In this document: one piece after another, positions 43,346 to 62,746 of the stretch
Position numbering within the stretch: the first letter of the stretch is position 1
Layout of the letters: the number at the start of each line of letters is the position of its first letter
Assembly (NCBI GenBank): GCA_000182565.2
Contig: KQ257453.1
Strand: one strand, 5' to 3'
Length of the DNA stretch: 64,000 nt
DNA from: Spizellomyces punctatus DAOM BR117
Lineage: Eukaryota
The notes under the pieces: model-generated
What the model saw: only the letters and a program-made list of their open reading frames with translations
Databases searched by the model: none
What the model was told of the DNA's origin: nothing
Translations under genes and position numbers: made by a program

Positions 43346-43467
43346 TTCCACTAGTCCCTACCATTACCCCTATACTATATATATATATAGAAAGAGAAGG
43401 AGACCCGATTGTAGAATTACAAAACTAGTTTGTCGTTTGCCTTTTTTTCAAGAGACTGATAAATAAA

Positions 43468-43545
43468 TAGTGCGGAGCCGGTGGGTATTGGCACTAGCAC
43501 CCGCACCAGGGATTGAACCGGCGACAACCGGCTCGGAAAACCTAA
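43468..43545 (-). ncRNA. Fanzor omegaRNA scaffold (guide continues into flank, about 43448-43467)
   Basis: Follows the Fanzor stop codon and overlaps the 3' TIR: GTTTTCCGAGCCGGTTGTCGCCGGTTCAATCCCTGGTGCGGGTGCTAGTGCCAATACCCACCGGCTCCGCACTA. GAGCCGGT/ACCGGCTC stem. Matches the SpuFz1 omegaRNA as I recall it. Confidence 0.85.
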
Positions 43546-43555
43546 TCTAACCAAT

Positions 43556-45343
43556 CTAAGCTACGGCTGGAACACTCCTGCTGAACACTTCTGGTCTACT
43601 GTGTCCATCCAACATTGATTGCACGATTATCAGCATATTGCAGGTGCTCAGCGTATCTCGATTCCAGTAGCGCATCATCCAGGCTTGCTGACAGTTAGGG
43701 TTGGTACAACCCAGCAATCCATGGACTTTTTCAATCTTGCCTTCTCATCATCACCAAGGTCTTGAATGAGGTCATGTTTTGAAGCCTTTTTCAAGGAAGT
43801 CATCAGATGAACAGTGAGGGCAGACAGATGAGGTTTTATACTCGTCGAGAAGGAAGCAGTTAATCCTGTTGTGCTTAAAGAGGGTGCGCCAACCTTTCAT
43901 CTTTGATGAGGTCTGAAATCTTGCAGTTCGACCGGCATCACTCCAATCTCCCATCACAATGGTAAAGTTTTCACTGTACTTGTTGCATAAGTTGGATATG
44001 AGGTTCAATTCACTCTTCTGACGGTTTATAAATGCATGCCACTTCCACTGCATGTGGGCAGGATGCGAATAGAAGTCCTTGTGGCAGTTCCAGTCGGCAC
44101 GGTGAACGAGGAGATAGCGAGTAAAGTCCATGAGGTTCATCATCTTGTGAGATGGTAGTCATGATTCTATGAGGTCAATACTGCCGGCTTTCATCTGCTG
44201 CCATTCTTTTGCAAATCGACGGCTTCCAGTCTCCACAGCTTGCTGGTTGGCAGTGTAGCGAAATGTACCATTGCCGTCTTGGCAGTAGAGAATGTCATGC
44301 TTGTTTGGGTCGATAACAATGACATTCTCTGCTGCTCGACAAGCAGGTAAGTTTTTCTCCACATAAAGCACCGTCACCTCAGCTGTAAGAGTTGTTGCTG
44401 ACTTTTTCCCACTGCTGCACTTCCCATACTTGTCTGCTTCTGGGTGCTTTAGGTATACAGACACTGAGGTTCCATCTGTGGTGATCGAGCCTTCAAACTG
44501 CATACCGTGGCGAGACCGAAAAGCTTTGGTATGTAGATTACAGATGCGCATCCATAAATTGACCTTCTCGACGGCTTCTGCATCTCGCCACGTGATGCAA
44601 AGGATATGAGAGTAGAGGATGACGGTGTCGATCTGCACATGGCTTTGGATGAGGGAGCGGTGAAGTGGGATTGCACTGAACCGTCGAAATCCATGCTTTT
44701 CATATAGGCTTGACAACCGACAGTAGGCAGGGAAGAAGGCAAGAGGGTCTATAGTAACTGAATATGCGAGCGGCTTGTCTTGATCAGGAAATGGCAGGTT
44801 AAGTGTCCACATCTCTTCTAGAAGCTCACTCTCTTCAGCAGTCAAGTCATCCAGTGACTCGGGCATGATATCAAAAAGAAAAACTGACTTTAAGTAGCAT
44901 AGCCGAGTAAAGAAAGCTTTTCATGCATCACTTTTTGGGGGCAGTTGCTGCTTGTGTCCCTTCACGTCGAGCCACAGATTAATGTACCAAAGGAGCATCT
45001 GCATGAAATGTTCTTGAATGTTGACTTTCAGGTTTGTCATCATACTCGCTGTCAGGTAATTGATTGACTGCTGCTTGCCGTGTAGGTTTGGATGAGGAAA
45101 ATCAACGATGCGGCAGTACTGTTGAACATATGGCAGCAAACAATCCCGCTGTGCCTTCTTTGCTTCCTTTCTTGGATGCCAAGCCTCCCCCTTGTTGAGA
45201 AGATAGAGAATTGCTTCAATTGTATCTTCATTTACCATGGGAAAGGTTGGTGCAGATAGGATGTAGAATTTGAGAGTGTGGGAAGCGTGGTTGGTGAGTT
45301 GATGGATGATGGTGATGTAATCTAGAAGCCGTTGGTGGTAGGT
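43556..45343 (-). pseudogene. Fz1: Fanzor1 RNA-guided nuclease, main body (codon 34 to end), six in-frame TGA stops, no frameshift
   Basis: One continuous frame TYHQRLLDYI...ITTDGTSVSV...VIDPNKHD (RuvC-I)...VMGDWS...LDEYKTSSVCPHC...LGCTNPNC...WNRDTLS (RuvC-III)...RSVPAVA-stop. Confidence 0.95.
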
Positions 45344-45393
45344 TCTGGTAGTGCATCACCCATGGTATATACCATGGGTGATGCACTACCAGA
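45344..45393. repeat. Perfect 50-bp terminal palindrome (left)
   Basis: TCTGGTAGTGCATCACCCATGGTAT|ATACCATGGGTGATGCACTACCAGA. Confidence 0.97.
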
Positions 45394-45496
45394 GGGCCCA
45401 TAGTTCATTCAACTCTACCAGGACCCATAGTACCCAGAAATGCCAGAAAACCCATAGTTCGTTCAACTCTACCAGGACCCATAGTACCCGTAGGAG

Positions 45497-45655
45497 CCAT
45501 ATTTAAACACCCTGTCAACAACTATTGCTGAAACACCCACTCCATATTTAAACGCCCTGTCAACAACTATTGCTGAAACGCCCACTCCATATTTAAATGC
45601 CCTGTCAACAACTGTAGCTGAAATGCCCACTCCATATTTAAACGCCCTGTCAACT
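45497..45655. repeat. Subterminal 45-bp tandem repeat, about 3.5 copies (mirrored near 61870-62030)
   Basis: Unit ccatatttaaacgccctgtcaacaactattgctgaaacgcccact starting at 45497, 45542, 45587 and 45632. Confidence 0.9.
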
Positions 45656-46596
45656 ACACTCATATAAGCTCGACCTGCTTTCGTAATGCTTACGTAATCA
45701 ATAACATCCATCATGTCACGTGGCATTCACTCCATCGCTGCCTCCCACATTCATTTAAAAAAGCATGACTCCCCGGGATTGGCTATGCCCCATTTCCTAT
45801 AAGGAAACAGTTGTATTTTGAGGTATTGAGTTCGAACACCTCATGGCCAATTGTTTGGGCACATTTCGAATGTTGTATATGGAATCGTTTACAGAGGAGC
45901 TGGTTGGATTGGGGGGGGGAGGATGCAAGAAGCTAGCCGCCTTTAAGCAAAAACTTGGACTTGCTATTGATAGTCGCTTTTCCCACTTTACGTCAGCAGA
46001 TTACTATGCATACAACATCAAAGCTACGCATACAACTCACGTGACACATCTTCACCATTTTGGATCAAAAGGTACATTCACTTCACTCATTTCCTTCACA
46101 ATCGTTGAACCAAATAGTGTTAATGGAAGTCACGTGATTTGACATGTCTCAGACATGTTTGCTCATCATGGTTCTTCAAATACAGCTTTGGTTTCCGAGG
46201 TTGCCTATGGCAAAAGTAAAGGAACATTCAATCGCTTCACTGCGCATCCTCGCTTCCTTCATAATCATGGAATCATATGGTGTAAATGGAAGTGAATGGT
46301 GACTTGATTCCACATATACTTACACAAAAAACCCAGACCCAAACGTGTGTACATACTTCCACTATATGAGAAAATAATTTTTTTTTTTGAAGAAGCTTTA
46401 TTCTTTTTTTTTTTTTAAAATCTGTCTCTTAACTGAAGCAAACTACACTTTTGGGTCTGGGTTTTTTGGGTTTCTCTCCATTCATCGAAACAAACTTTTA
46501 CTAAATCATCTCGGGTTTGAGCCATTTTATCGAGTCAGCTTCTCACACTACCCGTTTTACCCATCTCTCACTTGTTTCTATTCTGCCATTACTGAT

Positions 46597-48288
46597 TCAA
46601 CGGAAACATGATTGCAGTTTCAATTGGTAGCCCCTAAATACATCCATCATCCTATCCTTCCCCTTTCCTGTGTCAGAAACATAATTTTTGAGAGTTTTAC
46701 GAAGCACATCTACAAGGTGCTTCTTATCTTTGAATCTCAACTTCATGGATTGGGGCATCCATGCTTTGATGTCCTTCAACTCCAAAACCGCATCTTCTGC
46801 TTCCTCCACATTATCCTCCAACCATTCCTCCAAGTTATCTACCACTGCAGATACCTCTTCTCTCCAATCTTTGCATGAGTCTGGAATGTTCTGAAACCGG
46901 TTTTGTAAATACTTCATATGCCCTTCCAGTAACCATTCCAAAATATATGGTTGCCACACATGAAACTTATCTGAAATGAATGGGTCGGCTAGGTACTTGT
47001 ATTCCAATTTGCTGTCCTTCACCTCTTGTTCGGTCTTCAAAAACTTGGAGCGAAAGGGTAACACTAGCATGCGCTCTACAAATGCTGTGTCGGAGGTATC
47101 ATATTTGGGCTGGCAGCGGTCGTTGAATATCATAATCCATTTGGTGGTAAGTGCCACAATTTCATCCTTTTTGCTATGTGGTCTTCAGCCAGTTTCGCTT
47201 GCATTCCCCCCATGGTTCTTTTTGGCTCTTTTGGTATCAAGTGTCTTGTGCTCGTCCATCTCTTCGAAGATTGCGAGCAAGTATCCAGCATATGCAAATA
47301 TTGCAGCATTATGACCATTCTGATTGGAATGCCTGGTGGAACGATATATATGTTCGGCATTTCCCTGCTTTGCATACCCGCCAAAGGCTATTTCCAAAGC
47401 CTGCGCAAACTTTGTCTTGCCATTGTTACCATCGATTTTGTCCTTCAGGACGCGGAAAATTTTCTCCGGATGGTCACCACGGAGGCAATATCCAGCGTAT
47501 ATGTGGGCAATATTGCGCTCCTCCTCCACAGGGAAGAGACGAGTAACAAATTCAAGCCAATCGTTGCGCAATTTGGCAGAAACATCGTTTTCGGTAGAAA
47601 AATAATCGTAGCCTACTGTCTTTGTTATAAGCACATCCTTGCTATATGGTTTCAACTTCCCATCCACAAGGTCCACATAGCCATTATTGCATCCAATCTT
47701 CAAAGGGTCCTTATCACATCTTTGCAGAAAAGTAGCATTGTATACTTCACACTTGAAACAGGAAATGATGGATGTGATGTGAGAGTTGGTAGTCAGCAGT
47801 GATTTTGCGAAGTTCTCTGTTTCCAAGCAGCGTTTGTACTTATAGGCCTTTTTGGAATCGGGGTCCACTTTGGAGAGCAAATCTAAGAAAATTCTGATGC
47901 GTTCGTCCCAGATGGGGTTCATGTGCTTGACCATAAATTGTCGGACAATCTCGCAGTGTTCCGATATAGGTTGCCACCCATCCCTAAACATCCAAACCGT
48001 CGTTCCGTCATACACAAACATCCCATCACTCAGTTTGCGTAGAAGTTGTGCCATAGAGAGATGGCTAGGGGATTTGACTGCTTCTTGTAGTTCGCCGTCG
48101 AGGTGTTCGCCCATCAGGTCCATGTCGGCATCATCGGAAGCATCTTCTTCAACTTCCACAGCATTTTTGATGTGATATTTTTCGTTAAATTCCATTGAAA
48201 CAAGCATGGGTTTGATGACTAATGGAACGTCAAAATTAGTATCCTCTGTAACATATGCCTGACATTCTTCTAAAAGTTCCGTGGCTAC
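46597..48288 (-). pseudogene. D5-like (SF3) primase-helicase, 5'-truncated by the LTR element, one in-frame TGA at 47185
   Basis: D5_N-like KIGCNNGYVDLVDGKLKPYSKDVLITK, Walker A GNNGKTKF, Walker B LAIFEE, motif C region IFND..DTAFVERMLVLPF. ORFs 47185.. and 46597.. are in the same frame. Confidence 0.88.
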
Positions 48289-48860
48289 TGTAGCGAACGA
48301 CTCTGATAAACCGGTTCGCTCAAAGGCATCAGGTGACCACGATTGAGGTTTCCGCAATTGTAACCTAAGCTTCGAAACCCCTAAGATCAAGCTCGGTTCT
48401 GGGCTACACCAGCGCAGCATGAAGGATACGTTACGCAGCCATGATCGATCATGGCGATGGTCCGAGATGGGAAGATCGGACGCCGCCACCCTAATGAAGG
48501 CTACGGAAACTAGTGTAGACATTACCGTAGCATATTCTTGTATAAAAAGAGGAATTCAATAAAATAAGTCGGTGGCCAGAAGCCGTAGCGACACTAAATC
48601 CCCACAACTAGCTTCTCAACTCCAATCTTAGGTTAACAGGAACCTAACAGAGCGCTTCAATGGCCTGATCACCCACACTGAAGCCTCTAAATCCTGCTCG
48701 GTTCACAACTAACTGACTCTCCTTGCCTCTCGCCCTCAAGTCGCTACCGATGCCCAAAGAAAGGATTTGGAGACTACGATTCCTAGTACGGACACCCACA
48801 CAACCTGCTAGGAGACCCAAGTTGTCTTTACCATAGTCTACCAACAAAAAATCTGTTACA
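48289..48860 (+). repeat. 5' LTR (572 bp)
   Basis: TGTAGCG...TGTTACA, direct repeat of 53929-54500, with TATAAAA and AATAAA inside. Confidence 0.95.
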
Positions 48861-48875
48861 TGGTGGAGAAGCGCG
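48861..48875 (+). promoter_or_regulatory. Primer binding site, probably tRNA-Ala
   Basis: TGGTGGAGAAGCGCG directly after the 5' LTR. Complement ends ...UCUCCACCA, typical of tRNA-Ala 3' ends. Confidence 0.7.
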
Positions 48876-49002
48876 ACAAACTGCCTTCCCCTCTCAAATT
48901 CAGCTGAAAACCTTATTCGGTCATACCGAAACTCTTGCGCAAACTGAGATCTGCTCAGGTAGCTACTCGGAAACCTTTTCTCTTGTTTCGGAAACAGACT
49001 TC

Positions 49003-52000
49003 ATGAAACCGAGAATGATGCCGGTCAAACGCTCTCCAACGCGAGGCCACTCACCTGTGATCCAGACTCGTAGTCAGGGTCCTGCGGAGGACGTCGAAGT
49101 CCCTCCCGCAACACGCCCAAGGCGTTCAGGGACCACTTCCGTCGAACCGGAAGCCCCTAACTTGGCCACGATGGCCTCTGAAGTGGCAGCGTTAAAAGAA
49201 GACATTGCCCGCTCGACTGCTGCAATGCAGTTGGCAACTCAAAATCTTACGGAACAGCTTCATAGGCTTTCCGAATGTCAGACAGCGGCGGATGAGCGCC
49301 TCGCACGAGCCTTAGAAGCCCTAGCACATCGCCCACTGCCTGAACAACCTCTCATAGCACGAGCTACAAGAGAACGGTCCGCAACCCCGTGGGAAACGTC
49401 GGACACACCAAGGGAGCGTACCGAACCAAGTTTTTCAGGTCCGGTGCCTCCAATCCAAGTGCCAGCGGCCCCGTGGGCCAGCAACACCAAGGTCGATTCC
49501 TTGAAAGCAAAGGACGTACCCAAGTTTACGGGCAAAAGAAACCAAGACATTGAAGAATGGCTCAACAAAGTCCAACTTCTTCAAAACATTAGCGCAACAT
49601 CGGATGCCAGGATGGTACAGCTCCTACCAGCCATGATAGCCGAGAAAACCCCTGCCGACGCTTGGTTTTACACTCTGGAAGCCCAGGAAACTTGCTCGTG
49701 GACCTGGAAAAGGTGGAAAGAAGAACTGCTTCGAGAGTTCCGAGGTCCCCTAACCGAGTCCAAGTGCAAAACCGAATATGTGCACTGCCACGCGAACCCC
49801 AAAGAATTTCGCAGCTTCCTCGCATTCATTGACCACAAAACTCATCTCCGGCGCCTCGCATACGGCGACCGGGCAAACATAGAATGTCCCACTGACCAGC
49901 ATTTCGACCTAATAGTCGAACAATTGCCCAGCGACATCCAAATCATGGTCAAATCCTGTAACATCACGAACCTGACCAAATTAAAAGACTTCCTGCGCCT
50001 TTATTTCGGCTCTGATGACACCAGAAAACGAGACCCTTGCTACAGCGGTGCTGCTGAAGCTCAGAAGAAGTCACAAAAGACCGGAACCGACAAAGGCCCT
50101 AAGCAGATGGCTCAACATAAAACCGGAAACCCCAAAAAGAGTCGCGACGGCCCTCAGAAGATGGTTCCGGACCCCAACACGGAACCACCGGCACCCTGCA
50201 AATTCTGTCAGAAAAAGCATTGGAATGTTTTCTGCTGGCAGAACCCGAACCGAAAAGGGTTCTACGCCCAATTCATTTCTCGCTACGCGGAACTCGTCCG
50301 ACCCCTGCAAGATGCTATCCAAGAGGGCGTTCGCGAATACCAAGACCTTAAAAAGGGTCGCGCTGACCCGAAGAAAGGCGCTGAAAAGCTCAATTCACCA
50401 TCCATGCTTGACATGGCGGTGGCCCCTACAATAACAGCCACCGGAGCCCGATTTGAGGTTTCGCAACATCCGAAATCTAGCTCCTCAGACCTACCGGCGG
50501 TCAATCTACGCCAATCATCGCTGGCGGACTTACCCATTGACCCCTTTTGTGTCGGACGCCTTGCTCGCAAGCGCCCCGACCAAGGTCTGCGCAGATTTAT
50601 CGCGAAGCGTGAAGTTTCATGGACCGATTCCCGAAACTCTGCCTTTGCAGCCGCCAAGCAGGCTCTGACAACAGCTCCAGTGCTCGCGGCACCCAGAAAA
50701 GGGTTCCCCTACACCCTTCACAGTGATGCTTCCTACACAGCGTTTAATGTCACGCTTGAACAGTTACAGCCGGATGCTTCTAAATGCCCGCTGTGCTACC
50801 ATTCCCGAGGCACCACCACCTCAGAAAAGAAGGCCCCCCCCGTCGAACTCGAGGCCGGATGCCTCATTTGGGGCCTCGGAAAACTCCGCCCATACCTCGA
50901 AGGCCTGCCTTTCACGGTCATTACTGATCACCGAGCTCTTTTGTGGCTCGCTAAATACAAAGGCGAGAACCGTAAGCTTCTCCGCTGGGCCCTCGATCTT
51001 AGTTACTGGTCCGAATGGATGACAATCGTTCACAAACCAGGACGTTTTCACATTGTCGCTGATACACTTTCACGGCTACTAGGAGCGGAAACCCTACTCT
51101 GCTCCACCGCGACCCAAATATGGGTGTCGAAATGCGGAAGACGACGGCTGCGCACCACACCAGCTGCTCTCGCACCTTCCTCGACACTGGCAGATGCCGT
51201 CTTTCGTCTGGCCTTACAGCCTGCACTCATTGCCGCCATCCGCGCTGGCCTCACCGGCCAGCTCCACCCCATAGCCCAACAGGCCTGCATGCTCCTATGG
51301 GAGACCAGCCCCGACACCTACACTACAGCCGACGCGCGCTTTCTTCAGGACTGGCAACGTGCAGATAACCTGCTGTGGCACCGTTTTTCAGTCTCCAAAG
51401 ACCTTTGGCACCTCTACGTGCCCCCTGCTTGCACCCCCAAGGTGCGCAAGCTTTTTCACGAGGGGGGAGGACACTTTGGATTCGAAAGAACCTATGCTAG
51501 AGCTGCAGCACAAGTCTGGTGGCCGAAAATGGCACAAGATTTCAGAAAACATTGCGCAGGATGTGAAACCTGCCAACGCTCAAAAAGGGTACCGCAACTG
51601 ATTCCGGGGTTGTTGAAACCCATACCACCAGCTCCAGGACGCTGGACAGTCATCACGACTGACTTCGTAACCAAGCTCCCACTTACTTCCAGAGGGTACG
51701 ATGCCTTTTGGCTAATAGCTTGTAAATGCTCAAAGAGGATCCACGTATGGCCCCTCAAGAGCACTGCGACAGCTACTCAGGTCGTGGAACTATTTATAGA
51801 ACGCTACGTCCCATTGCACGGCATCCCGGAAACTATCATCTCAGACCGCGACCCCAAATTTACGAGTCGATTTTGGCAGGAGGTCTGCAAAAACCTAAAG
51901 ATTAATCAAGAGCTCACCACAGCCTACCACCCTCAAGGTGATGGACAATCAGAGAGAGACAACGCAACGGTCTTGCAGGTCCTTACCACAATGGTCAACA

Positions 52001-53871
52001 CCCGATTAGACGACTGGGACACCTTTCTTCTGGTTGCAGAATTCATTATCAATGATACGGTACACGAGGCGACAAAAATGATGCGGTTCAAGATGGACCT
52101 AGGCTATGAGCCCCACAATCCACTGGCGGACATCGTTGAAAGGCTGTCAGAAACCAGAAATGCAGATGTGGAAGAGCTCTGTAAACATCTCAGAGACCTA
52201 AACATCCTTATCCGGGATCTGATGATCGAGGCCCAGGACTCGCAGAAAAGATATTACGATTTATCGCGACGACATCTGGAGTTCCGGAGAGGAGATAAGG
52301 TGCTTCTGAGCACAAAAAACCTAGCAGGGTATGAGTCCAAGATCGCTCCGAAATGGCTGGGACCAGTCACGGTGACCGACTGCAACCCTCTCCACGACAA
52401 CTATGAGCTAAAACTGCCAGACAAGATGAGACGACTTCACCCATGGTTTCACATATCAAAATTACGTCCGTACCAGAAGCCTGTCGACGCCGAAACTGAG
52501 GAAAGGATCGTGGAAGCACAAATGGAGGATTCCGACGCTTCAAAAGGCGAGTTCGAAGTGGAAGCGATAGTAGACCATCGAACCAGGCGCGGAAAGCATC
52601 AATTTCGAATACGTTGGGCCGGATACCCACCCCATGAGGATACCTGGGAACCAGAGGAAGCCCTAACAGAGGCTTCCGAAGCCTTAGAAGAGTACTGGAG
52701 ATCCAGAGCTCCCACTAGCGCACTAGTAGAGGACTCCTTGGTAGTCAGCTTTGCAGGCGACACCCTGGCTTACGCTTCTGACCACCAATGCTTCACGATT
52801 TATCCGGACAATAGCTCACGTGATAATCACACCCTCTCACCAGAAAGAAAACCAGTTTTGCGCGGCTTACCTCACCAGTCGAGAACACCACACCAAGCCT
52901 CCCGATCATGCTTATGTGCATCTGAGCTGTCAAAATCAGCCGGCGATGACCTTAAAAGGACGCCCCTGCACACTCCCCCTCTTTTTTCTTCTTCAACTAC
53001 CTATGACCTATCTCCCTTACAGACCTACTCTGCTTTGCAAACCTTGTCTATGGACACCGAGACAAAAGCTTTCGTTTCCAACACCATGACCACCGATATC
53101 CGAGGACAACAAGGAGTCAGCATCCTCTCTACCCTTGAGGAAGGCTATCCCTGGTCAGAAGTAAGCGACGCCTTCGCTGCCGAGAACTCTATCGAGCGGC
53201 TCGGAGCAGCTATGGCCACCTGGGTCGAAGTTTGGATTCGTGAGCTGTTCGAAGACCCAAACAAACCCCTCGAACACTATCGTGGTGAAGATTGGGTGGT
53301 TGACGGGGCTTCGAAGCCGTACGCCACGAGCCAGCCCCTCACGATGCATATTGCGGAGCCCTACAGTAGGGCTTCCGACGGCAGTCAAGCAGCTGTCGGT
53401 ATCATCGCCGACACAAAAAAGATTGGGAAGAGATTACGGGACGTACCCTGCACCGCCTGGCTTGACGCTGGGGTCCCTCAACATGCGGCCGGAAACCCCA
53501 AAACGGCCCGCTTCACCCTCTGGCCCGATCGCGAGGCCCACGATTTCGCGGACATAGCCATCGAAGCCGCGAGAGCAGTGTTGTTAAAGCTAGCCAACGC
53601 AGCTGAAACCACAGAAGAGCAGCTCCGTCCCAAACATCGGGAGCACGCCTATTACCACTTTCGAGCGGTTAACTTGAAAAGGGCCGCAGAGACGTTCACA
53701 GCCCTCTACGTAACCCGAGCCAACGGTTCCAGGACACCTGGAACCCCGGCTCCGGAAGCCACTGACCAAATTTGGTTCTGCGCGAACGTCATGGGGCGCG
53801 CTACCATAATCTGGACGATCAACGAAGACAGCCTTGAAGCTGACGACGACTATCCAGTTGCGTCATGGTAG
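49003..53871 (+). CDS. Gag-(deleted PR/RT)-RNase H-integrase-chromodomain polyprotein with unknown C-terminal extension
   Basis: Gag PKFTG..IEEWL and knuckle CKFCQKKHWNVFC. RNase H LHSDAS..ELEA..ITDHRAL..ADTLSR. IN zinc finger H..GGHFG..CETC. Core TDFV, SDRDPKF, HPQGDGQSE. Chromodomain FEVEAIVDHR..RWAGY..DTWEPE. Confidence 0.92.
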   Translation: MKPRMMPVKRSPTRGHSPVIQTRSQGPAEDVEVPPATRPRRSGTTSVEPEAPNLATMASEVAALKEDIARSTAAMQLATQNLTEQLHRLSECQTAADERLARALEALAHRPLPEQPLIARATRERSATPWETSDTPRERTEPSFSGPVPPIQVPAAPWASNTKVDSLKAKDVPKFTGKRNQDIEEWLNKVQLLQNISATSDARMVQLLPAMIAEKTPADAWFYTLEAQETCSWTWKRWKEELLREFRGPLTESKCKTEYVHCHANPKEFRSFLAFIDHKTHLRRLAYGDRANIECPTDQHFDLIVEQLPSDIQIMVKSCNITNLTKLKDFLRLYFGSDDTRKRDPCYSGAAEAQKKSQKTGTDKGPKQMAQHKTGNPKKSRDGPQKMVPDPNTEPPAPCKFCQKKHWNVFCWQNPNRKGFYAQFISRYAELVRPLQDAIQEGVREYQDLKKGRADPKKGAEKLNSPSMLDMAVAPTITATGARFEVSQHPKSSSSDLPAVNLRQSSLADLPIDPFCVGRLARKRPDQGLRRFIAKREVSWTDSRNSAFAAAKQALTTAPVLAAPRKGFPYTLHSDASYTAFNVTLEQLQPDASKCPLCYHSRGTTTSEKKAPPVELEAGCLIWGLGKLRPYLEGLPFTVITDHRALLWLAKYKGENRKLLRWALDLSYWSEWMTIVHKPGRFHIVADTLSRLLGAETLLCSTATQIWVSKCGRRRLRTTPAALAPSSTLADAVFRLALQPALIAAIRAGLTGQLHPIAQQACMLLWETSPDTYTTADARFLQDWQRADNLLWHRFSVSKDLWHLYVPPACTPKVRKLFHEGGGHFGFERTYARAAAQVWWPKMAQDFRKHCAGCETCQRSKRVPQLIPGLLKPIPPAPGRWTVITTDFVTKLPLTSRGYDAFWLIACKCSKRIHVWPLKSTATATQVVELFIERYVPLHGIPETIISDRDPKFTSRFWQEVCKNLKINQELTTAYHPQGDGQSERDNATVLQVLTTMVNTRLDDWDTFLLVAEFIINDTVHEATKMMRFKMDLGYEPHNPLADIVERLSETRNADVEELCKHLRDLNILIRDLMIEAQDSQKRYYDLSRRHLEFRRGDKVLLSTKNLAGYESKIAPKWLGPVTVTDCNPLHDNYELKLPDKMRRLHPWFHISKLRPYQKPVDAETEERIVEAQMEDSDASKGEFEVEAIVDHRTRRGKHQFRIRWAGYPPHEDTWEPEEALTEASEALEEYWRSRAPTSALVEDSLVVSFAGDTLAYASDHQCFTIYPDNSSRDNHTLSPERKPVLRGLPHQSRTPHQASRSCLCASELSKSAGDDLKRTPLHTPPLFSSSTTYDLSPLQTYSALQTLSMDTETKAFVSNTMTTDIRGQQGVSILSTLEEGYPWSEVSDAFAAENSIERLGAAMATWVEVWIRELFEDPNKPLEHYRGEDWVVDGASKPYATSQPLTMHIAEPYSRASDGSQAAVGIIADTKKIGKRLRDVPCTAWLDAGVPQHAAGNPKTARFTLWPDREAHDFADIAIEAARAVLLKLANAAETTEEQLRPKHREHAYYHFRAVNLKRAAETFTALYVTRANGSRTPGTPAPEATDQIWFCANVMGRATIIWTINEDSLEADDDYPVASW

Positions 53872-53918
53872 AAGCGAGGTTCGGGCACTCACAGACGAGT
53901 CGCCGAACCTTCTTTTTC

Positions 53919-53928
53919 GAAGGGGGGA
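53919..53928 (+). promoter_or_regulatory. Polypurine tract
   Basis: GAAGGGGGGA immediately before the 3' LTR. Confidence 0.85.
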
Positions 53929-54500
53929 TGTAGCAAATGACTCTGATAAACCGGTTCGCTCAAAGGCATCAGGTGACCATGATTGAGGTTTCCGCAATTG
54001 TAACCTAAGCTTCGAAACCCCTAAGATCAAGCTCGGTTCTGGGCTACACCAGCGCAGCGTGAAGGATATGTTACGCAGCCATGATCGATCATGGCAATGG
54101 TCCGAGATGGGAAGATCGGATGCCGCCACCCTAATGAAGGCTACGGAAACTAGTGTAGACGTTACCGTAGCATATTCTTGTATAAAAAGAGGAATTCAAT
54201 AAAATAAGTCGGCGGCCAGAAGCCGTAGCGACACTAAATCCCCACAACTAGCTTCTCAACTCCAATCTTAGGTTAACAGGAACCTAACAGAGCGCTTCAA
54301 CGGCCTGATCACCCACACTGAAGCCTCTAAATCCTGCTCGGTTCACAACTAACCGACTCTCCTTGCCTCTCGCCCTCAAGTCGCTACCGACGCCCAAAGA
54401 AAGGATTTGGAGACTACGATTCCTAGTACAGACACCCACATAACCTGCTAGGAGACCCAAGTCGTCTTTACCGTAGTCTACCAACAAAAAATCCGTTACA
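53929..54500 (+). repeat. 3' LTR (572 bp)
   Basis: TGTAGCA...CGTTACA. Confidence 0.95.
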
Positions 54501-54501
54501 A

Positions 54502-57500
54502 AAAGGACTGACAATACTCGCGAACACTGGAATCGTTACACTGGATGCAACAACTGATTCATCTTCAACAGTCACTGGCGCTCTACAGGTGGCAGGAGGA
54601 GTTGGCATAAAAGGAACGGTTTACATGGGTAAGTATGCTATTATATCAAGTCCCACCGCAGCAGCCTTCCAGATAAATAATGGGGCATTCGGCTTCGCTG
54701 ACTCAGCTGGACAATGGTTCACAAACACATTAGCGAATGATTACGTCTTGCGAACAAGCACCAGTAATTTGCATATTGGTACAAACGGAGCGACGGCTTC
54801 TAATCTGGATATTCTCTCATCCAGGAATGTTATTATCAATATGACGACAGATTGTACTTCCACAACAACTGGCTCCTTTCAAGTCAAAGGTGGAGTTGGC
54901 ATCGCTAAATCACTGTACATTGGAGGGGATGTATACACAAATGGTGTGAAATTGGCTACTGAAAGTTCTCTAACAGCATCCGTTGCTACGAAGCAAAATG
55001 CAAGTCCTTTACTCGATGCAATAAGTGGTTTAACAACGACACCTAATACATTCATCATGGGGGCATCGAACGGTTTTACAGCGACACCTGTTTCCACTAT
55101 TCTTGGTGGATACCAACCTCTTCTTACTACATCATCCTCATTGAATGTGAATTCTCTGATGACCAGTGGTGGGATATTTGTACAAGGGGCTATGGATATG
55201 GTGTTCCGTGTTGATAATGTAGGCAATGGACTCTTGACAGGTGGCTTACTTGTGGAAAAGGATCTAAATGTTGAAGGACTGATCATTCAAAATGGTGTCA
55301 AGGTGGCAATGCAACAATGGGCTGTTGCTATGATGACTAGCATGACAACTCCTCTCAGTCAATCCTTGACATTGCTTCAAACACTTGTTCAGAATAACAA
55401 GACCGCCGCAGATATGGCGCTTGCTACTAAACAAAGTGCTTCTCCATTACTCAATTCCATCAGTGGTTTAATACCGGCGGCTAACACATTCATCATGGGA
55501 ACACCCACAGGGTTCTCAGTTGTTCCTACATCGAATATACTTTCCTCATATCAACCTCTTATTACCTCATCGACTGCGCTATCATTTAACAGCGCTACTG
55601 TTGGCAGGGGTATAACCATTCAAAATGGCGCAGCATCTACAACAATGTCCTTAGTGAACACTGGGAGTAACATTACATGGGGCATGAGAGTTGCCGGAAG
55701 CACAGGAGACGGAACATTATCAGCAGGCGGATTCGGTCTAAATAGTTCTTATAACAATACAGGCTTCGTTCTGAGAGTTTCCAATACAGGCGTAATGCAG
55801 ATACCAAACACAACTGATTCATCTAGTGTGACAACAGGTGCTTTCCAGGTATCAGGTGGAGTTGGCATAGGAAAAACTCTAACCCTAGGAGCAGGTGGAG
55901 GAGGATTGCAGCCTGCGGCCATAGTCATCAATGCGCCTTCAAGTGCTACTGCATCTATGGCCGTTCTGATTAGTAACAATGCTGCTTCGAGTAATTCATG
56001 GGGTATATACCATGCTGCAACTAATGGAACAGGTATACTTACCAATGGGAGCCTCGGGTTTTATAACTATGGAACTAGCGCCCATCAATTCATCCTCAAA
56101 GCCAATGGAACCATTGCAATCACTTCCACTACAGACTCATCGTCAACTATAACGGGCGCATTGCAGGTATCAGGAGGTGCAGGAATTGCTAAATCACTGT
56201 ACGTCGGTGGTGACATTTTCTCCAATAATCTCAAACTTGCAACCGAGAGTTATGTAGGGATGGCCATTGCTAATAAACAGGCATCGAGTCCACTATTATC
56301 ATCCATAAGCGGTCTTGCACTATCTGCAAATTCATTCATTGTTGGAAGTTCTGCTACATCATTCTCCACGAAAACTGTTGAAGAGGTGAAGTCAATTCTA
56401 GGTGTTACGAATGTCGACCTCTCAGGGAAGCAAAATGCAAGTCCTTTACTCGATTCCATTGCCTCGATGTCACCAATGAGCAATATGTTTCTCATGGGAG
56501 ATGATGTCCAAGGATTCACTCTCGCAAATGATGTCACTGTGCGAAGTATTTTAAACATTGTCAACTATGCCCCCAGCATATCAGCACTGCAAACATCGAA
56601 ACAAGATGTTATAATGTCTTCCAGCAATCTGTTGGTAAATACAATTCTTGCTAATGATACATCCGATGCACAAACCGTATCAAGTGGGGCTCTACAGGTT
56701 AAAGGAGGTATAGGGGTTTCTAAAAGCATCTTCTCAGGTGGAAACATTACAGGAAAAGTTCTTATAGCAGCCTCTACAGGTGGATATTTCAAGTTGAGAA
56801 GCGACACTCCCTCTATGAAAGGTGACTACACTATCTCCTACAACAACTCCGGAGACGCCCTTCACGTCCACCTCGCCGGCTCGTCTGATAGCATAGACCA
56901 ACATCGTTATGAATTCGGTCATTATTCCAGTGATACCTTTGGAACATGGAATAGCTGATTCTCTGTTAACACCTACACCGGAGACCTCATCTTGTCCGGT
57001 AATCTAACTATTGGTTTGCCACTTAATGGGCTACGGGCTATTATTTTGAAAAATCTCGACCCAGGAACCAATGCTTGTGCCATCCAATACTTCCAGAATG
57101 CCGCAGGGAGTGCTGTTATGTTTTTGAACGGAAACAATAGGAGTGTGGATGGGGGAGTAAATACATTTACAATAAGGAACGATGCAGGGGGAGTGCGATT
57201 GCAAGCGCAGGGAGCGAAGGGTATTACTATTGCATCATCGACAGGAAATGTCATAGTTGAAAGCACCACTCCGGCTTTATCGAGTACAACAGGTGCATTG
57301 GTGGTGAATGGAGGTGTCGCTGTTGGAGCCCATGTAGTGGCTGGAGGGAATCTTTATAGCAATGGCCCAGTTTACTCGAATGGTCAGGTGTGCGCAACTC
57401 AGTCATGGGTGACCGGTCAGACATTCCTAAGAAATGTTCAAGTTTTCAAACTGTTGACTAAAGATGTATGGCAATCCAACAATGCCTCGAAAGTTTTCTA

Positions 57501-57792
57501 TGTTTCAACACCAGGCAAGGTACTTATGGAGTGGACAATACGCTTGCATGGCAATGCAAACTCAAATGGTACACTTTCCATCTTCCTTGGACAAAGTGCC
57601 GGCTCAATGCCTCTCGTATATGCTTCAGACTTCAATTTCAACAGTGGAATTAACACTACGCTGACAGCCACATTCATTCTTACAGGGATGGCCGATAACG
57701 TGGCTTACTTCACAAATTTTAGTATCAGTCAGGCTGCTCCTGATAATACCACAGATGTTACCCTCATCAAAATCACGGAACTCGGCCCTTAG
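54502..57792 (+). pseudogene. Viral tail-fibre/spike-like repeat protein, 5'-truncated, one in-frame TGA at 56956
   Basis: About 6 copies of TTDSSSxxTGA(L/F)QVxGG(V/A)GI and 4 of KQxxSPLLxxIxx. ORFs 54589..56958 and 56992..57792 share a frame, which is open back to the LTR edge. Confidence 0.75.
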
Positions 57793-57843
57793 AAACTTAG
57801 TGCACTACGCTATGATTAAAAAACAAAGCTATGTAAACTTACA

Positions 57844-58164
57844 ATGCAACGTGTTGATATAGATTATCATTTGGTATTCAATATCAGGGATGCCATCAAA
57901 GGTGACATGGATAAGTTTTGGAGATATTGCAAGAGCATGTTGACCGGTAGTGACAAGGCAAAAATCATACTGTATCTTAAAAAAAATCAAGAGAACCAAC
58001 CGATTTTTGATAAAATCATGTCAATTGTCCACCTGAGCAAATTGGATCATTTATGCTTCAACTGTACCAGTTATCTCGCAATTTTGAATGATTGTATATT
58101 GCTAGGGCATGAACATAATGAAAAACTGTTCATTTTAGAGATGCGGATGGAGGAGGTTCAGTAG
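57844..58164 (+). CDS. Hypothetical protein of the virus-like element (106 aa)
   Basis: Intronless ATG ORF tightly packed after the fibre gene. Confidence 0.5.
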   Translation: MQRVDIDYHLVFNIRDAIKGDMDKFWRYCKSMLTGSDKAKIILYLKKNQENQPIFDKIMSIVHLSKLDHLCFNCTSYLAILNDCILLGHEHNEKLFILEMRMEEVQ

Positions 58165-58187
58165 GATACCATGAGCCACAGTTCTAT

Positions 58188-58547
58188 TCAACACACAACA
58201 ACCTCAATATCCATAGAACTAGATAGACTCTTAGTACATTCAAGGATTAAGTCTAATTGTTCAACTGCAAATGATTCCTTTTCACTCTTATGCTGCATTT
58301 GACAATATGTTCCTATAGTGGTAGTAGATAGTAAGAGAATCATACCAGGCCAACTAGTTTCAAAATGTGTAGGATATTCGAAAACATATTGAGCTGCCCA
58401 TGAAACTGGCTCAAGTGCAGCCACAAGACGTTCTTCTCTACCATCCCCAGCGCCCGTGAGTATTCCATCTATCGCTCGGTGAATAACCTGGGAATAAAAA
58501 ACACATCGGAACTGCTTTGCATTTTCAGGTTCTTGGTCAGACGACAT
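58188..58547 (-). CDS. Hypothetical protein of the virus-like element (119 aa)
   Basis: Intronless ATG ORF converging on the previous one, with an AT-rich upstream region. Confidence 0.5.
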   Translation of the reverse strand: MSSDQEPENAKQFRCVFYSQVIHRAIDGILTGAGDGREERLVAALEPVSWAAQYVFEYPTHFETSWPGMILLLSTTTIGTYCQMQHKSEKESFAVEQLDLILECTKSLSSSMDIEVVVC

Positions 58548-58716
58548 TATACAATGCCATCAAAATGTGAACGTTAAGATACTTTATATAATAATGACAC
58601 TTTACATCATTGTTCTACATCATGTAGCTAATTTGATGTAGTAGTTGATGTGTACCAACTCTTATAAAAAGCTAGTATGCAATAGCAGAGCTTCTGCATT
58701 CAAACACAACCTAAAC

Positions 58717-59662
58717 ATGTCTTTCTGTAACGACGAGGACGTCTTCGAGAGATCGCGAGTAAGCCCAAATCGGACGCGGGAAGCACGAATCGCGTGACCA
58801 ACTCCACCGATTGGGTTACCGCGACCGAAAAAACCGGTTCGGAGAATGGCAATTGGCGCATTAGATTTCAGCGTGCCTCGTACAACCTGTGGAGGCCCGA
58901 GCCAGTGCGGAAAAGGAAGAGATCGGTACCGCCACCAATAAATCAGTTGCGGTGCAGCGACACCCATTAGTTTAGTTTAGTTTAACAGTTTATCCAAGAA
59001 TCTTGTATAAAAAGGATGTATTCAATAAAATAAGTCGGGGGCAGAAGCCGTAGCGACAAAAAATCCCCATAACTCGCTTCTCAACTCCAATCTTAGGTTA
59101 ACAGGAACCTAACAGAGCGCTTCAACGGCCTGATCACCCGTACCGAAGCCTCTAAATCCTGCTCGGTTCACAACTAACCGACTCTCCTTGCCTCTCGCCC
59201 TCAAGTCGCTACCGACGCCCAAAGAAAGGATTTGGAGACTACGATTCCTAGTACGGACACCCACACAACCTGCTAGGAGACCCAAGTTGTCTTTACTGTA
59301 GTCTACCAACAAAAAATCCGTTACATTTCCCTGTTACTCCAAAGCATGAACACTTTGCTAATTGCATCATGCTCTTCAAGACGGACATGTTGATGGCAAT
59401 GGATAAGCGAGGAAGGTGCATCCATATCAACACTTCCAACTTTCCTGAAGTTCGCCGTATTATGAATGATGAAGATTTGTTTCGCATCTTTGTTCATAAC
59501 AAAACCAAAAGGAGCGTGGGGGAAAAGAATCGGATTTGCCCTGTTTGTTCGCGCAACTATGATATTCCTGATAAAGTCAAAACGGCAACAGAAAAGGAGA
59601 TGGCTCTCTCCGGTGTTTGTAGTGATGCCTGCTGGGATACAGCAACTAAATTCAATGAGTAA
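58717..59662 (+). pseudogene. Small Zn-finger-like protein interrupted by a solo LTR
   Basis: Removing the LTR and one TTTC restores MSFPVTPKHEHFANCIMLFKTD...CPVC...CSDACW. Confidence 0.7.
58726..59325 (+). mobile_element. Solo LTR (600 bp) with 4-bp TSD TTTC
   Basis: TGTAACG...CGTTACA termini. The 3' part (about 59000-59325) is nearly identical to the other LTRs. TTTC at 58722-25 and 59326-29. Confidence 0.92.
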
Positions 59663-59854
59663 GAAGTGAATGTGAGCGGGGGCGTGGGGGGCATGTGGGG
59701 GGCGACCTTTTGAATGGTAAAATTTTGGGACCAGCTAGAATGCGGGGATGCATGAGAAGCAGACACGTCATTGTTCTACATAACCATGATGTAGTAGTTG
59801 ATGTTTACTAATTCTTATAAATTGAATGCATACCATGCTATAGCTAAATCCAAA

Positions 59855-60336
59855 ATGGCTTCCCTCTTTCCCCCAGAAATAGTAACCTTCATCGACGAGT
59901 ATTGTGACATTGACACTAAGATTAAACTATGCAAGGCAACCGGTCTCGGATGGGAGAGGGTCAAAATACCAAATGAGCCACAGTTTCTTCATAAGATGAA
60001 GAGAATCAATCAGTTGCCTTTCTATGATGAATATGTATGCGACCATGAGACAGAATGCCACCCCTTTTTTGGAAATATGAATGCAACGACAAGTTACTAC
60101 GCATAGAGATGCATCAAGAAGGCAACAACGAGTTTTACTTTGTTCTACTCAAAGATTTTGAGAACGAAAACTATTCGTATGCAATGTATCAAGAGTATTA
60201 CCATTATGGTCATGAGGAAGGCTGTATTTTCAGAGAGTATGATGGTAGGGATAAGCGATCAGATTTTATAGCACATCGTGGCAGGGACAGGCTGGTAATG
60301 AGACAATTGTGGGGCAGGGCGATGGATGTTTTTTAG
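59855..60336 (+). pseudogene. Duplicated small gene, copy 1 (frameshifted near 60065), F-box-like N-terminus
   Basis: MASLFPPEIVTFIDEYCDIDTKIKLCKA. Similarity to copy 2 continues in another frame (KYEC..IEMHQE..EFYFVLLKDF). Confidence 0.7.
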
Positions 60337-60456
60337 GGCGTGGGGGGCATACACGAGAGGCAGATACGTCGTTGTTCTACATAACCATGATGTAGTAGTT
60401 GATGTTTACTAATTCTTATAAATTGAATGCATACCATGCTATAGCTAAAATCCAAA

Positions 60457-60897
60457 ATGGCTTCCCTCTTTCCCCCAGAAATAGTAACCTTCATCGACGA
60501 GTATTGTGACATCGACACTAAGATTAAACTATGCAAGGCAGTTAGTCTCGGATGGGAGAGGGTCAAAATACCGAATGAGCCACAGTTTCTTCATAAGATG
60601 AAGAGAATCGATCAGTTTTATAAGATGATGAGAATCAATCAATTGCCTAAATTTGTATGTGACCATATAAAATGCCGCACCGTAACATTTTTGGGGAAAT
60701 ATGAATGCATAGAGATGCATCAGGAAGACAATGACGAGTTTTACTTTGTTCTACTCAAAGACTTCCATGATGAGGATTATTCATATGCATTTTATCGAGA
60801 GGATTACCGTCATCAGGTGTTATGGCAAAGGAGAGATATTGCATTTTTTGAGGTGTTATGGCAACGGAAGGAGATTGAAAGGGCGAATAAAGAGTGA
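60457..60897 (+). CDS. Duplicated small gene, copy 2 (146 aa), F-box-like N-terminus
   Basis: Intact paralogue of 59855..60336 with the same upstream motif. Confidence 0.7.
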   Translation: MASLFPPEIVTFIDEYCDIDTKIKLCKAVSLGWERVKIPNEPQFLHKMKRIDQFYKMMRINQLPKFVCDHIKCRTVTFLGKYECIEMHQEDNDEFYFVLLKDFHDEDYSYAFYREDYRHQVLWQRRDIAFFEVLWQRKEIERANKE

Positions 60898-60916
60898 GAA
60901 TGTATGGAGGGATGTA

Positions 60917-62182
60917 CATGTTTCCATTGAATCAGTAATGGCAGAATAGAAACAAGTGAGAGATGGGTAAAACGGGTAGTGTGAGAAGCTGACTCGATAA
61001 AATGGCTCAAACCCGAGATGATTTAGTAAAAGTTTGTTTCAATGAATGGAGAGAAACCCAAAAAACCCAGACCCAAAAGTGTAGTTTGCTTCAGTTAAGA
61101 GACAGATTTTAAAAAAAAAAAAAGAATAAAGCTTCTTCAAAAAAAAAAATTATTTTCTCATATAGTGGAAGTATGTACACATGTTTGGGTCTGGGTTTTT
61201 TGTGTAAGTATATGTGGAATCGAGTCACCATTCACTTCCATTTACACCATATGATTCCATGATTATGAAGGAAGCGAGGACACGCAGTGAAGTGATTGAA
61301 TGTTCCTTTACTTTCGCCATAGGCGACCTCAGAAACCAAAGCTGTATTTAAAGAACCATGATGAGCAAACATGTCTGAGACATGTCAAATCACGTGACTT
61401 CCATTAACACTATTTGGTTCAACGATTGTGAAGGAAATGAGTGAAGTGAATGTACCTTTTGATCCAAAATGGTGAAGATGTGTCACGTGAGTTGTATGCA
61501 TAGCTTTGATGTTGTATGCATAGTAATCTGCTGATGTAAAGTGGGAAAAGCGACTATCAATAGCAAGTCCAAGTTTTTGCTTAAAGGCGGCTAGCTTCTT
61601 GCATCCTTCCCCCCCAATCCAACCAGCTCCTCTGTAAACGATTCCATATACAACATTCGAAATGTGCCCAAACAATTGGCCATGAGGTGTTCGAACTCAA
61701 TACCTCAAAATACAACTGTTTCCTTATAGGAAATGGGGCATGGCCAATCCCGGGGAGTCATGCTTTTTTAAATGAATGTGGGAGGCAGCGATGGAGTGAA
61801 TGCCACGTGACATGATGGATGTTATTGATTACGTAAGCATTATGAAAGCAGGTCGAGCTTATACGAGTGTAGTTGACAGGGCATTTAAATATGGAGTGGG
61901 CATTTCAGCTACAGTTGTTGACAGGGCATTTAAATATGGAGTGGGCATTTCAGCAATAGTTGTTGACAGGGTGTTTAAATATGGAGTGGGCGTTTCAGCA
62001 ATAGTTGTTGACAGGGCGTTTAAATATGGCTCCTACGGGTACTATGGGTCCTGGTAGAGTTGAACGAACTATGGGTTTTCTGGCATTTCTGGGTACTATG
62101 GGTCCTGGTAGAGTTGAACGAACTATGGGCCCTCTGGTAGTGCATCACCCATGGTATATACCATGGGTGATGCACTACCAGA
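60917..62182 (-). repeat. Right terminal inverted repeat (about 1266 bp)
   Basis: Reverse complement of 45344-46610 with scattered transitions and homopolymer length differences. Confidence 0.95.
62133..62182. repeat. Perfect 50-bp terminal palindrome (right)
   Basis: Same 50-mer as 45344-45393. Confidence 0.97.
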
Positions 62183-62187
62183 TAGGT

Positions 62188-62286
62188 CTCATTAGGCAGG
62201 AAAGCTTTTGCAAAGGAAGTTTTGTTGCATGTATGTAAGGTGGGTTTGTCAAGCTTTTCAAGCTTTTGCTTTTTCTTTGGCGGCAT
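62188..62286 (-). pseudogene. Fz1: Fanzor1 N-terminal 33 codons, separated by the nested insertion
   Basis: MPPKKKQKLEKLDKPTLHTCNKTSFAKAFLPNE with an SV40-like NLS. It joins 45343 in frame once the insert and one TSD copy are removed, giving about 628 aa. Confidence 0.93.
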
Positions 62287-62674
62287 GATGATTGGAATAG
62301 AAAAATGGATGAAAGCCTGGAAAATGGGCAGAGAATGATGAAAGCCTATTGGCAGAGAATGATGAAAACCTGGGAAATGGGCAGAGAAGGCGGGTTTATA
62401 TAGAGATATGACAACTGCGCATTGGACCCATTTTTCAATGGTGGAGCAACTGCAGAATATTCAATCCGTTCATTGCCGCACATATTGGACCTGTTTTTCA
62501 ATGGTGGAGCATCGTTTGGGCATCGAACCATTATCAAATCATAGTTCATGAGTCTAAATCGAGTAAAATTATGATTCAATTGGTTGGAATCACTGTACTA
62601 GTGCCAATACCCACCGGCTCCGCACTATGTTCGAGAAAAAGCCACCAAAAAATGTCCACTGGAATGACCCCCGA

Positions 62675-62746
62675 AGGTCCCACCGAGAATCGAACTCGGG
62701 TCGCAGGATTCAGAGTCCTGAGTGCTAACCGCTACACCATGGAACC
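62675..62746 (-). tRNA. tRNA-Gln (CTG)
   Basis: GGTTCCATGGTGTAGCGGTTAGCACTCAGGACTCTGAATCCTGCGACCCGAGTTCGATTCTCGGTGGGACCT folds as a cloverleaf with anticodon CTG and a GTTCGA T-loop. Downstream T6 terminator at about 62647-52. Confidence 0.95.

Follow-up and report, generated by a model that had tools for sequence, protein, structure and literature searches.

The outer element at 43468-62627 of a 64,000-nucleotide stretch of Spizellomyces punctatus DAOM BR117 (NCBI GenBank assembly GCA_000182565.2, contig KQ257453.1; the whole stretch is called the window here) is, with high confidence, a copy of the transposon SPu-1 whose Fanzor1 gene, on the minus strand, was split in codon 36, then decayed at CpG sites, and is now dead. 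SPu-1 was the first eukaryotic TnpB-like element to be described, in this same strain, and was reported as ~2,100 bp long, with 33-bp terminal inverted repeats, presumed target-site duplications (TSDs) of TA and 17 full-length copies, nine of which have intact open reading frames (ORFs) (Bao & Jurka 2013, PMC3627910). According to Saito et al. (2023, PMC10432273), the DAOM BR117 genome holds 42 Fanzor (Fz) loci, of which 19 are full-length, besides 134 "ghost" loci, and 11 loci carry extra genes inside their inverted repeats (IRs), including a Gypsy/Ty3 element in an Fz gene. The present copy agrees with that picture throughout and is very likely among the partial loci counted in that study. 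A first-pass annotation of the sequence had presented the locus as a disrupted paralogue within a described system, and both descriptions are correct. The Fanzor part of the locus is already known and has little import for Fanzor biology: family, target-adjacent motif (TAM), omegaRNA, structure and census have all been published from DAOM BR117 itself. Only the interrupting element, which is palindrome-tipped and bears D5-like and fibre-like genes, is mildly new.

Excision of the insertion together with one copy of its TAGGT duplication yields a frame of 1,887 nt, that is, 628 codons followed by TAG, which is the ORF of about 628 aa that the first-pass annotation had regarded as reconstructable; the junction then restores the ...NETY(H/R)QRLLDY... 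of the paralogues. Low similarity to Fanzor1/TnpB RuvC profiles had been named there as one outcome that would speak against the assignment. Instead, all five pieces of the frame matched SpuFz1 (a maltose-binding protein fusion; PDB 8GKH and six further entries) in collinear order, at chain residues 396-431, 431-572, 574-828, 830-957 and 968-1032 with E-values of 2.3e-13, 2.6e-73, 1.4e-120, 8.3e-71 and 3.5e-32, respectively, so that the pieces cover residues 396-1032 of the 8GKH chain with the exception of the stop positions. A database search with the 253-aa piece, confined to longer proteins, retrieved 23 matches, none of which is the present copy; 14 are named S. punctatus DAOM BR117 proteins with 72-82% identity. 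For alignment, the frame was read through with X standing for each stop and compared with the 12 proteins of at least 580 aa among the first 16 matches, four shorter ones being excluded. Its identity to these 12 S. punctatus paralogues is 69.1-83.4%, and to the 638-aa SPPG_07727 it is 81.9%. The copy had been called diverged, but 82% to SPPG_07727 equals the ~82% reported between Fz protein copies (PMC10432273) and is nothing special.

The RuvC D/E/D motifs claimed for the copy were located at IDPN (aa 377-380), LLDEY (aa 531-535) and WNRD (aa 593-596), with residues 531-544 reading LLDEYKTSSVCPHC, and the zinc-finger motifs CPHC and CTNPNC (aa 579-584) are retained as well. The frame thereby contains the TnpB-type motif D...[TS][TS]xx-C4 zinc finger...RD with the RuvC D/E/D triad, as defined in PMC3627910; the catalytic residues given for SpuFz1 are D383, E541 and D606 (PMC10432273). 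At the N-terminus, the basic MPPKKKQK is exact in nine of the 12 paralogues and occurs as a one-residue variant in two more. It is a putative nuclear localisation signal, in line with the first-pass proposal.

The same annotation had termed the locus complete, a description that does not hold. Although never shifted, the frame is broken by six internal TGA stops, which had gone unreported; they fall at codons 174, 428, 557, 564, 565 and 566. With these six TGA codons and the 16,839-bp insertion, the copy lacks an uninterrupted ORF and is a pseudogene, non-functional as a gene. Intact paralogues have Arg at all six stop columns. Arg has a majority of at least 70% among the paralogues in 47 columns, of which the copy retains Arg at 25 and has changed at 22, to His (6), stop (5), Gln (4), Trp (4) and Cys (3); one of the six stops lies outside these majority columns. 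Read at the codon level, these replacements are exactly those predicted when a CGN codon undergoes one C>T or one G>A change.

The same signature extends over the whole cluster. The observed/expected (o/e) ratio of CpG stands at 0.58 in one Fz part and 0.54 in the other, as against 0.92 in the 43-kb left flank, and along 43468-62627 it ranges from 0.53 to 0.67 in the old parts, with 0.91 in the interior of a Gypsy element nested in the insertion. The two inverted ends of the insertion differ from each other by transitions only (23/23, 18 of them at CpG), as do the two long terminal repeats (LTRs) of the Gypsy element (17/17, 16 at CpG). Taken together, the two repeat pairs show 40 differences, all transitions, with 34 at CpG. 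A like pattern of TGA at CpG is found in the D5-like and fibre-like genes of the insertion. In Spizellomyces, 5-methylcytosine (5mC) is reported to be restricted to transposons (PMC12695648), and the cluster-wide decay pattern agrees with that restriction; the Arg losses and the low CpG o/e fit decay of methylated CpG. The locus serves as a clean worked example of how a SPu-1 copy dies, with nonsense codons arising solely by CpG transitions in a genome with transposon-confined 5mC, and of time-ordered nested transposition. The nesting itself gives the order of insertions as SPu-1, then the element with terminal inverted repeats, then Gypsy.

The ends of the copy are defined by a 30-nt IR with exactly two occurrences in the window, one on each strand and without mismatch, while none of the shuffled windows held two matches to it. 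A repeat finder lengthened the pair to 34 nt at 97%. These are the 28-bp terminal inverted repeats of the first-pass annotation, which had counted them without the terminal TA; TA is present at the tips of both repeats, either as the duplication proposed there or as part of the repeat. On the minus strand, the flanks read ...GAACA ahead of the TA and TTTATTTATCAGTCT behind it, again as claimed, and this 15-mer has a single occurrence in the window. The filled junction between flank and IR is present in contig sets X1-X3, where an X1 record covers 43406-43511 with 0 differences. If the TA is the duplication, an exactly emptied site would read CA + TA + TTTATTTATCAGTCT. CATA is the SpuFz1 TAM, and Fz and ghost loci alike have a conserved CA upstream of the 5' IR (PMC10432273), which matches the first-pass statement that SpuFz1 uses a CATA TAM and a flank-derived guide. 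The notion of a self-site guide stands insofar as CATA + flank is readable in the DNA. It is not a distinction of the present copy, since with CA conserved at Fz and ghost loci it holds for every SPu-1 copy by construction.

An omegaRNA-type scaffold overlapping the 3' IR, also proposed in the first-pass annotation, was found at 43542->43468. The SpuFz1 omegaRNA is described as a 75-nt scaffold that encompasses the 3' IR and is followed by 14-15 variable nt, which form the guide; its canonical stem 2 has an 8-nt hairpin loop (PMC10432273). When folded with the next 15 nt, the scaffold formed a pair of stem-loops (-34.4 kcal/mol, z = -3.6; 1/200 shuffles did as well), and the loop of the second measures 8 nt. 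Compared by description, position and fold agree with the published omegaRNA. The scaffold retains 7 CpG (o/e 0.95). The guide had been taken to start at 43448, a start that would take in 20 nt; the published guide length would instead place it at 43453-43467, 15 nt. A tRNA-like identity was considered for the 5' half of the scaffold and rejected: ARAGORN called only a tRNA-Gln at 62675-62746, Rfam returned nothing, and on a reading of the letters the would-be T-arm requires an 8-nt loop and two G-T pairs.

These observations can be assembled into one account. SPu-1 is a ~2.1-2.3-kb non-autonomous DNA transposon encoding the RNA-guided nuclease Fanzor1 (SpuFz1), with read-through transcription 14-15 nt into the flanking DNA supplying the guide, and SpuFz1 cuts DNA in which CATA is followed by a match to that guide. 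Each copy is arranged as CA/TA-element-TA/flank, so that the emptied site, CATA + flank, would be the target of the copy's own guide, as we infer from the TnpB homing model. In the present copy, codon 36 was first split by the 16.8-kb element. C-to-T and G-to-A changes at CpG then accumulated across the cluster; they would account for the six TGA codons in place of Arg and for the loss of Arg at 17 more conserved positions, a type of decay expected for 5mC-marked transposons. Having sequence-intact 30-nt repeats and scaffold, the copy could be at most a "ghost"-like omegaRNA donor for Fanzor protein from other copies.

Set beside SPu-1/SpuFz1, the copy comes from the identical genome and has in common a 30-nt repeat pair whose 5' member is preceded by CA, a candidate 75-nt scaffold equal in position and two-stem-loop shape, and a collinear protein of 82% identity with the D/E/D triad and the C4 zinc finger retained. 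It differs in its six nonsense codons, in the 16.8-kb insertion in codon 36, in the loss of 22 of the 47 conserved Arg positions and, relative to 8GKH, in two places where the alignment shows 3-residue gaps, one close to the N-terminus and one within the zinc-finger loop. Ghost SPu-1 loci are likewise without a working Fz gene; like the present copy, they keep their repeats intact, together with an omegaRNA module for which protein could be provided in trans. According to PMC10432273, however, ghost loci are ~550 nt long, have repeats that differ at seven positions and show a 3-nt bulge in stem 2, whereas the present copy has the canonical Fz-type repeat and the 8-nt loop.

RNA run X7, an ordinary paired cDNA library with the same species label of which ~6% was read, and contig sets X1-X3 were placed on 43300-48280 at 97% likeness. 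X7 depth reached ~696 in the bin 43467-43633 and was 0-9 in the ORF bins (43801-45303). Nearly all placed reads (3,375 of 3,398) fit only partly. A look-up of RNA data sets listed for 43300-45340 returned none.

Several results weigh against the SPu-1 account or parts of it. The TA duplication and the CATA + flank site are read from one filled site, and at 2,316 bp the copy minus its insert is a little above the length of ~2.1 kb given in the literature. No TnpB or Fanzor family of Pfam-A was matched by the five Fz pieces even at E <= 1, and the precomputed PF26935.1 held by the paralogues was not reported by our local Pfam scan of the pieces. An Rfam search of 43300-43800 matched no family. 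X7 reads exit the locus at 43545 (2,295) and 43504 (865), and at 43513, where the copy has T, 1,626 of 1,737 reads have A. No X7 read extends into the guide, the guide-bin depth on that strand being 0.02, although silence is not implied by an ordinary cDNA library. From the partial fits, the exits at both sides and the A at 43513, the X7 pile at 43505-43545 therefore derives from elsewhere: its source has no more than ~41 nt in common with the scaffold's 5' half and runs on into unrelated sequence at either side. This abundant RNA plausibly stems from ghost loci or from other relatives of SPu-1 in the genome.

The first alternative leaves the ORF dead but has the omegaRNA still being made and taken up in trans by SpuFz1 that intact copies encode, which would make this a functional non-autonomous element. 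We consider it rather unlikely. It is favoured by the identity of the IR pair (30/30), by a scaffold that keeps 7 CpG at o/e 0.95 versus 0.58 in the ORF, and by the published activity of ghost omegaRNAs with SpuFz1 (PMC10432273). Contig sets X1-X3, likely DNA contigs, also have a summed word depth of 36-61 over 43467-43633 versus ~3 in the single-copy D5 region, and many genomic copies match the 3' end, scaffold included, at 97% or more, depth here not being copy number. Against these points, the guide is not entered by any X7 read, and if 5mC silences the cluster, the omegaRNA promoter would be silenced too. A rough estimate, moreover, puts at ~0.12 the chance that 7 or more CpG out of 9 at most survive at the ORF loss rate, which is not significant.

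In a second alternative, the adjoining CATA would merely reflect the target preference of an unknown mobilising transposase (TA target, Tc1/mariner-like) and be unrelated to re-cutting by Fanzor. TA tips and putative TA TSDs, together with the many Fanzor1 genes found in Mariner elements (PMC3627910), are in keeping with such a preference, and no passage on "homing" or "excision" was found among the passages of PMC10432273 that were searched. At Fz as well as ghost loci, however, the CA beyond the repeat is conserved, and CA + TA is the experimental TAM, in which any base change abolishes SpuFz1 cutting (PMC10432273), so that coincidence is unlikely. A transposase preference is moreover compatible with re-cutting by Fanzor, the two readings not being exclusive, and we regard this alternative as improbable.

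A third alternative, scarcely credible, is that the copy is a working Fanzor gene in which splicing removes the 16.8-kb insert and the TGAs are either intronic or translated by read-through. In its favour, all stops are TGA, the frame is never shifted, and as read from the sequence the first TGA lies within a 48-nt GT...AG stretch whose removal would preserve the frame. On the other side, the stops stand for single Arg residues in a contiguous alignment to SpuFz1 and 12 paralogues and hence are not insertions, the TGA at 44159-44161 allows no GT...AG around it, the TGA-at-CpG pattern recurs in the D5-like and fibre-like genes and matches the transition-only, CpG-centred differences of the repeats, and X7 RNA depth over 43801-45303 is only 0-9. 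The pseudogene account of the SPu-1 copy is the one carried forward here; the coordinates of the copy and of the element inside it are collected in Table 1.

Table 1. Features of the split SPu-1 copy and of the element nested in it (window coordinates).
Feature	Position	Strand	Remarks
Right-end (3') IR, including terminal TA	43468..43497	plus	30 nt
Left-end (5') IR	62598..62627	minus	30 nt
CA immediately outside 5' IR	62629-62628	minus	with repeat-tip TA gives CATA
Fanzor1 codons 1-35	62183..62286	minus	ATG 62286-62284; basic MPPKKKQK N-terminus
Fanzor1 codons 36-628 and TAG stop	43556..45343	minus	REC, WED, RuvC, zinc finger
Premature TGA, codon 174	44921..44923	minus	Arg in 12/12 aligned paralogues
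Premature TGA, codon 428	44159..44161	minus	at conserved Arg
Four premature TGA, codons 557 and 564-566	43745..43774	minus	43774-43772 and 43753-43745; conserved R...RRR, between two CxxC pairs
OmegaRNA-type scaffold through 3' IR	43542->43468	minus	75 nt; begins 13 nt past stop codon (43558-43556)
Flank directly 3' of scaffold, predicted guide	43453..43467	minus	15 nt; native guide 14-15 nt per PMC10432273
Nested insertion	45344..62182		16,839 bp; splits Fanzor1 codon 36
TSD TAGGT, left copy	45339..45343		5 bp
TSD TAGGT, right copy	62183..62187		5 bp
Left inverted end of insertion	45344..46610		1,267 bp
Right inverted end of insertion	60917..62182		1,266 bp
D5-type primase-helicase remnant	46597..48288	minus	C-terminal ~560 aa; 5' side cut by Gypsy LTR
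Defective Gypsy/Ty3 element	48289..54500	plus	572-bp TG...CA LTRs, 48289-48860 and 53929-54500
Fibre-like repeat protein gene	54502..57792	plus	5'-truncated at LTR
Third, partial Gypsy LTR	59010..59325	plus	4.5 kb downstream of Gypsy element
Tandem duplication, ~601 bp	59744..60813	plus	small ORFs, e.g. 60457-60897 (146 aa)

The nested element is bounded by inverted ends that are 98.2% identical to each other, with 23 differences and a single gap. Both tips consist of one and the same perfect palindrome of 50 nt (45344-45393 and 62133-62182), which as single-stranded DNA folds into a hairpin of -29.1 kcal/mol (z = -8.6) and is followed by subterminal repeats of 54 and 45 bp. Retroviral-type TG...CA ends were considered for this element and rejected, as no direct duplication remains with such ends.

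Inside the inverted ends, the D5-like gene contains one in-frame TGA (47185-47187) and matched Pfam D5_N (4.3e-11) and PHROG DNA primase (1.6e-24 and 6.3e-12, profile positions 365-781 of 855). Eight longer D5_N relatives (726-1,083 aa, 35-50% identity) were retrieved, including S. punctatus SPPG_08461 and proteins of Powellomyces hirtus, Geranomyces michiganensis and Rhizophlyctis rosea; the presence of relatives in several chytrid genomes hints at a lineage-wide element family (Spizellomycetales, Rhizophlyctidales). A search of IMG/VR with the D5-like piece alone gave no relative. With an alignment of 9 D5-like sequences, 65 pattern matches reduced to 1 locus, on a 7-kb contig of a giant-virus metagenome-assembled genome. 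At 27% identity, this relative was judged too distant to serve as a basis for classifying the insert.

The fibre-like gene contains an in-frame TGA at 56956-56958. Its ORF is 100% identical to SPPG_02563 (961 aa) over 85% of the 818-aa query, and over its C-terminal 276 aa it shows 91% identity to SPPG_05485 (residues 1054-1329 of 1,330). From the alignment of this C-terminus to SPPG_05485, an estimated ~235 aa are absent from the start of the gene; SPPG_05485 (1,330 aa) and SPPG_05632 (1,332 aa) are likely the full-length paralogues. SPPG_02563 appears to be a 5'-truncated pseudogene inside a nested transposon and, being a truncated gene with an in-frame stop, is a likely annotation artefact. 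More distant fibre-like relatives often contain PF13884. A protein atlas offered weak phage-fibre leads (0.91, below its trustworthy recognition level), a PDB sequence search with two fibre pieces found nothing meaningful, and an AlphaFold model of the 277-aa C-terminus from a 5-row alignment was all-beta and unusable, with a mean confidence (pLDDT) of 40.3.

Between these two genes lies the Gypsy element, whose LTRs are 97.0% identical (17 differences). It resembles Gypsy/Ty3 chromoviruses in its LTRs, in a polyprotein with RNase H, integrase, SH3 and chromodomain, and in the purine-rich tract ahead of the 3' LTR. It differs in that neither protease nor reverse transcriptase was detected (no RVT or RVP Pfam match, and no YxDD or D[ST]G motif) and in the lack of a matching TSD, its flanks being GCTAC and AAAAG. 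A third, partial LTR and a Gypsy element without TSD suggest LTR-LTR recombination between separate insertions. Because the D5-like and fibre-like genes are both cut at their 5' sides by LTRs and the LTR flanks differ, two Gypsy insertions probably recombined in this way and deleted the host-element DNA between them.

Polinton-like viruses are integrated in protist and chytrid genomes, with one element reported in S. punctatus (Bellas & Sommaruga 2021, PMC7805220), and numerous chytrid genomes are reported to contain A32-type ATPase genes from presumed viral regions (PMC7805220; bioRxiv 10.64898/2026.06.19.733378). The insert resembles this group, as described in PMC7805220, in its long terminal inverted repeats, its helicase-primase in place of a protein-primed DNA polymerase (pPolB), its size class of >10 kb and its 5-bp TSD, which falls inside the reported 5-7 bp. 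It differs in that its centre has been taken over by the defective Gypsy element and in its 50-bp tip palindrome, which has no counterpart in the passages of PMC7805220 consulted. Pfam and PHROGs searches of the 8 ORFs scanned identified no major or minor capsid, penton, packaging (A32-type) ATPase, integrase or recombinase. The Gypsy-flanked deletion may have removed the capsid, penton and ATPase genes and would explain why no capsid, ATPase or integrase gene turned up. The nested element is possibly the relic of a Polinton-like or other DNA-virus-like element, and it is not filed as a member of the Polinton-like viruses because the capsid module that defines the group was not found. Only tentatively would we place it in an undescribed chytrid family of virus-like mobile elements that combines a D5 primase-helicase, a fibre, small ORFs resembling those of giant viruses, 1.27-kb ends capped by the hairpin-forming palindrome and a 5-bp duplication on integration, and that is related to Polinton-like viruses or derived from a giant virus. 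The element is of note in that chytrid DNA-virus-like elements are still poorly charted.

Two smaller features complete the locus. The language-model neighbours of the 146-aa ORF in the tandem duplication are virus-only clusters, mostly Nucleocytoviricota, at 0.92, a weak lead below the trustworthy recognition level. Outside the SPu-1 copy, 47 bp past its left-end repeat, ARAGORN places a tRNA-Gln(CTG) gene on the minus strand at 62675-62746.

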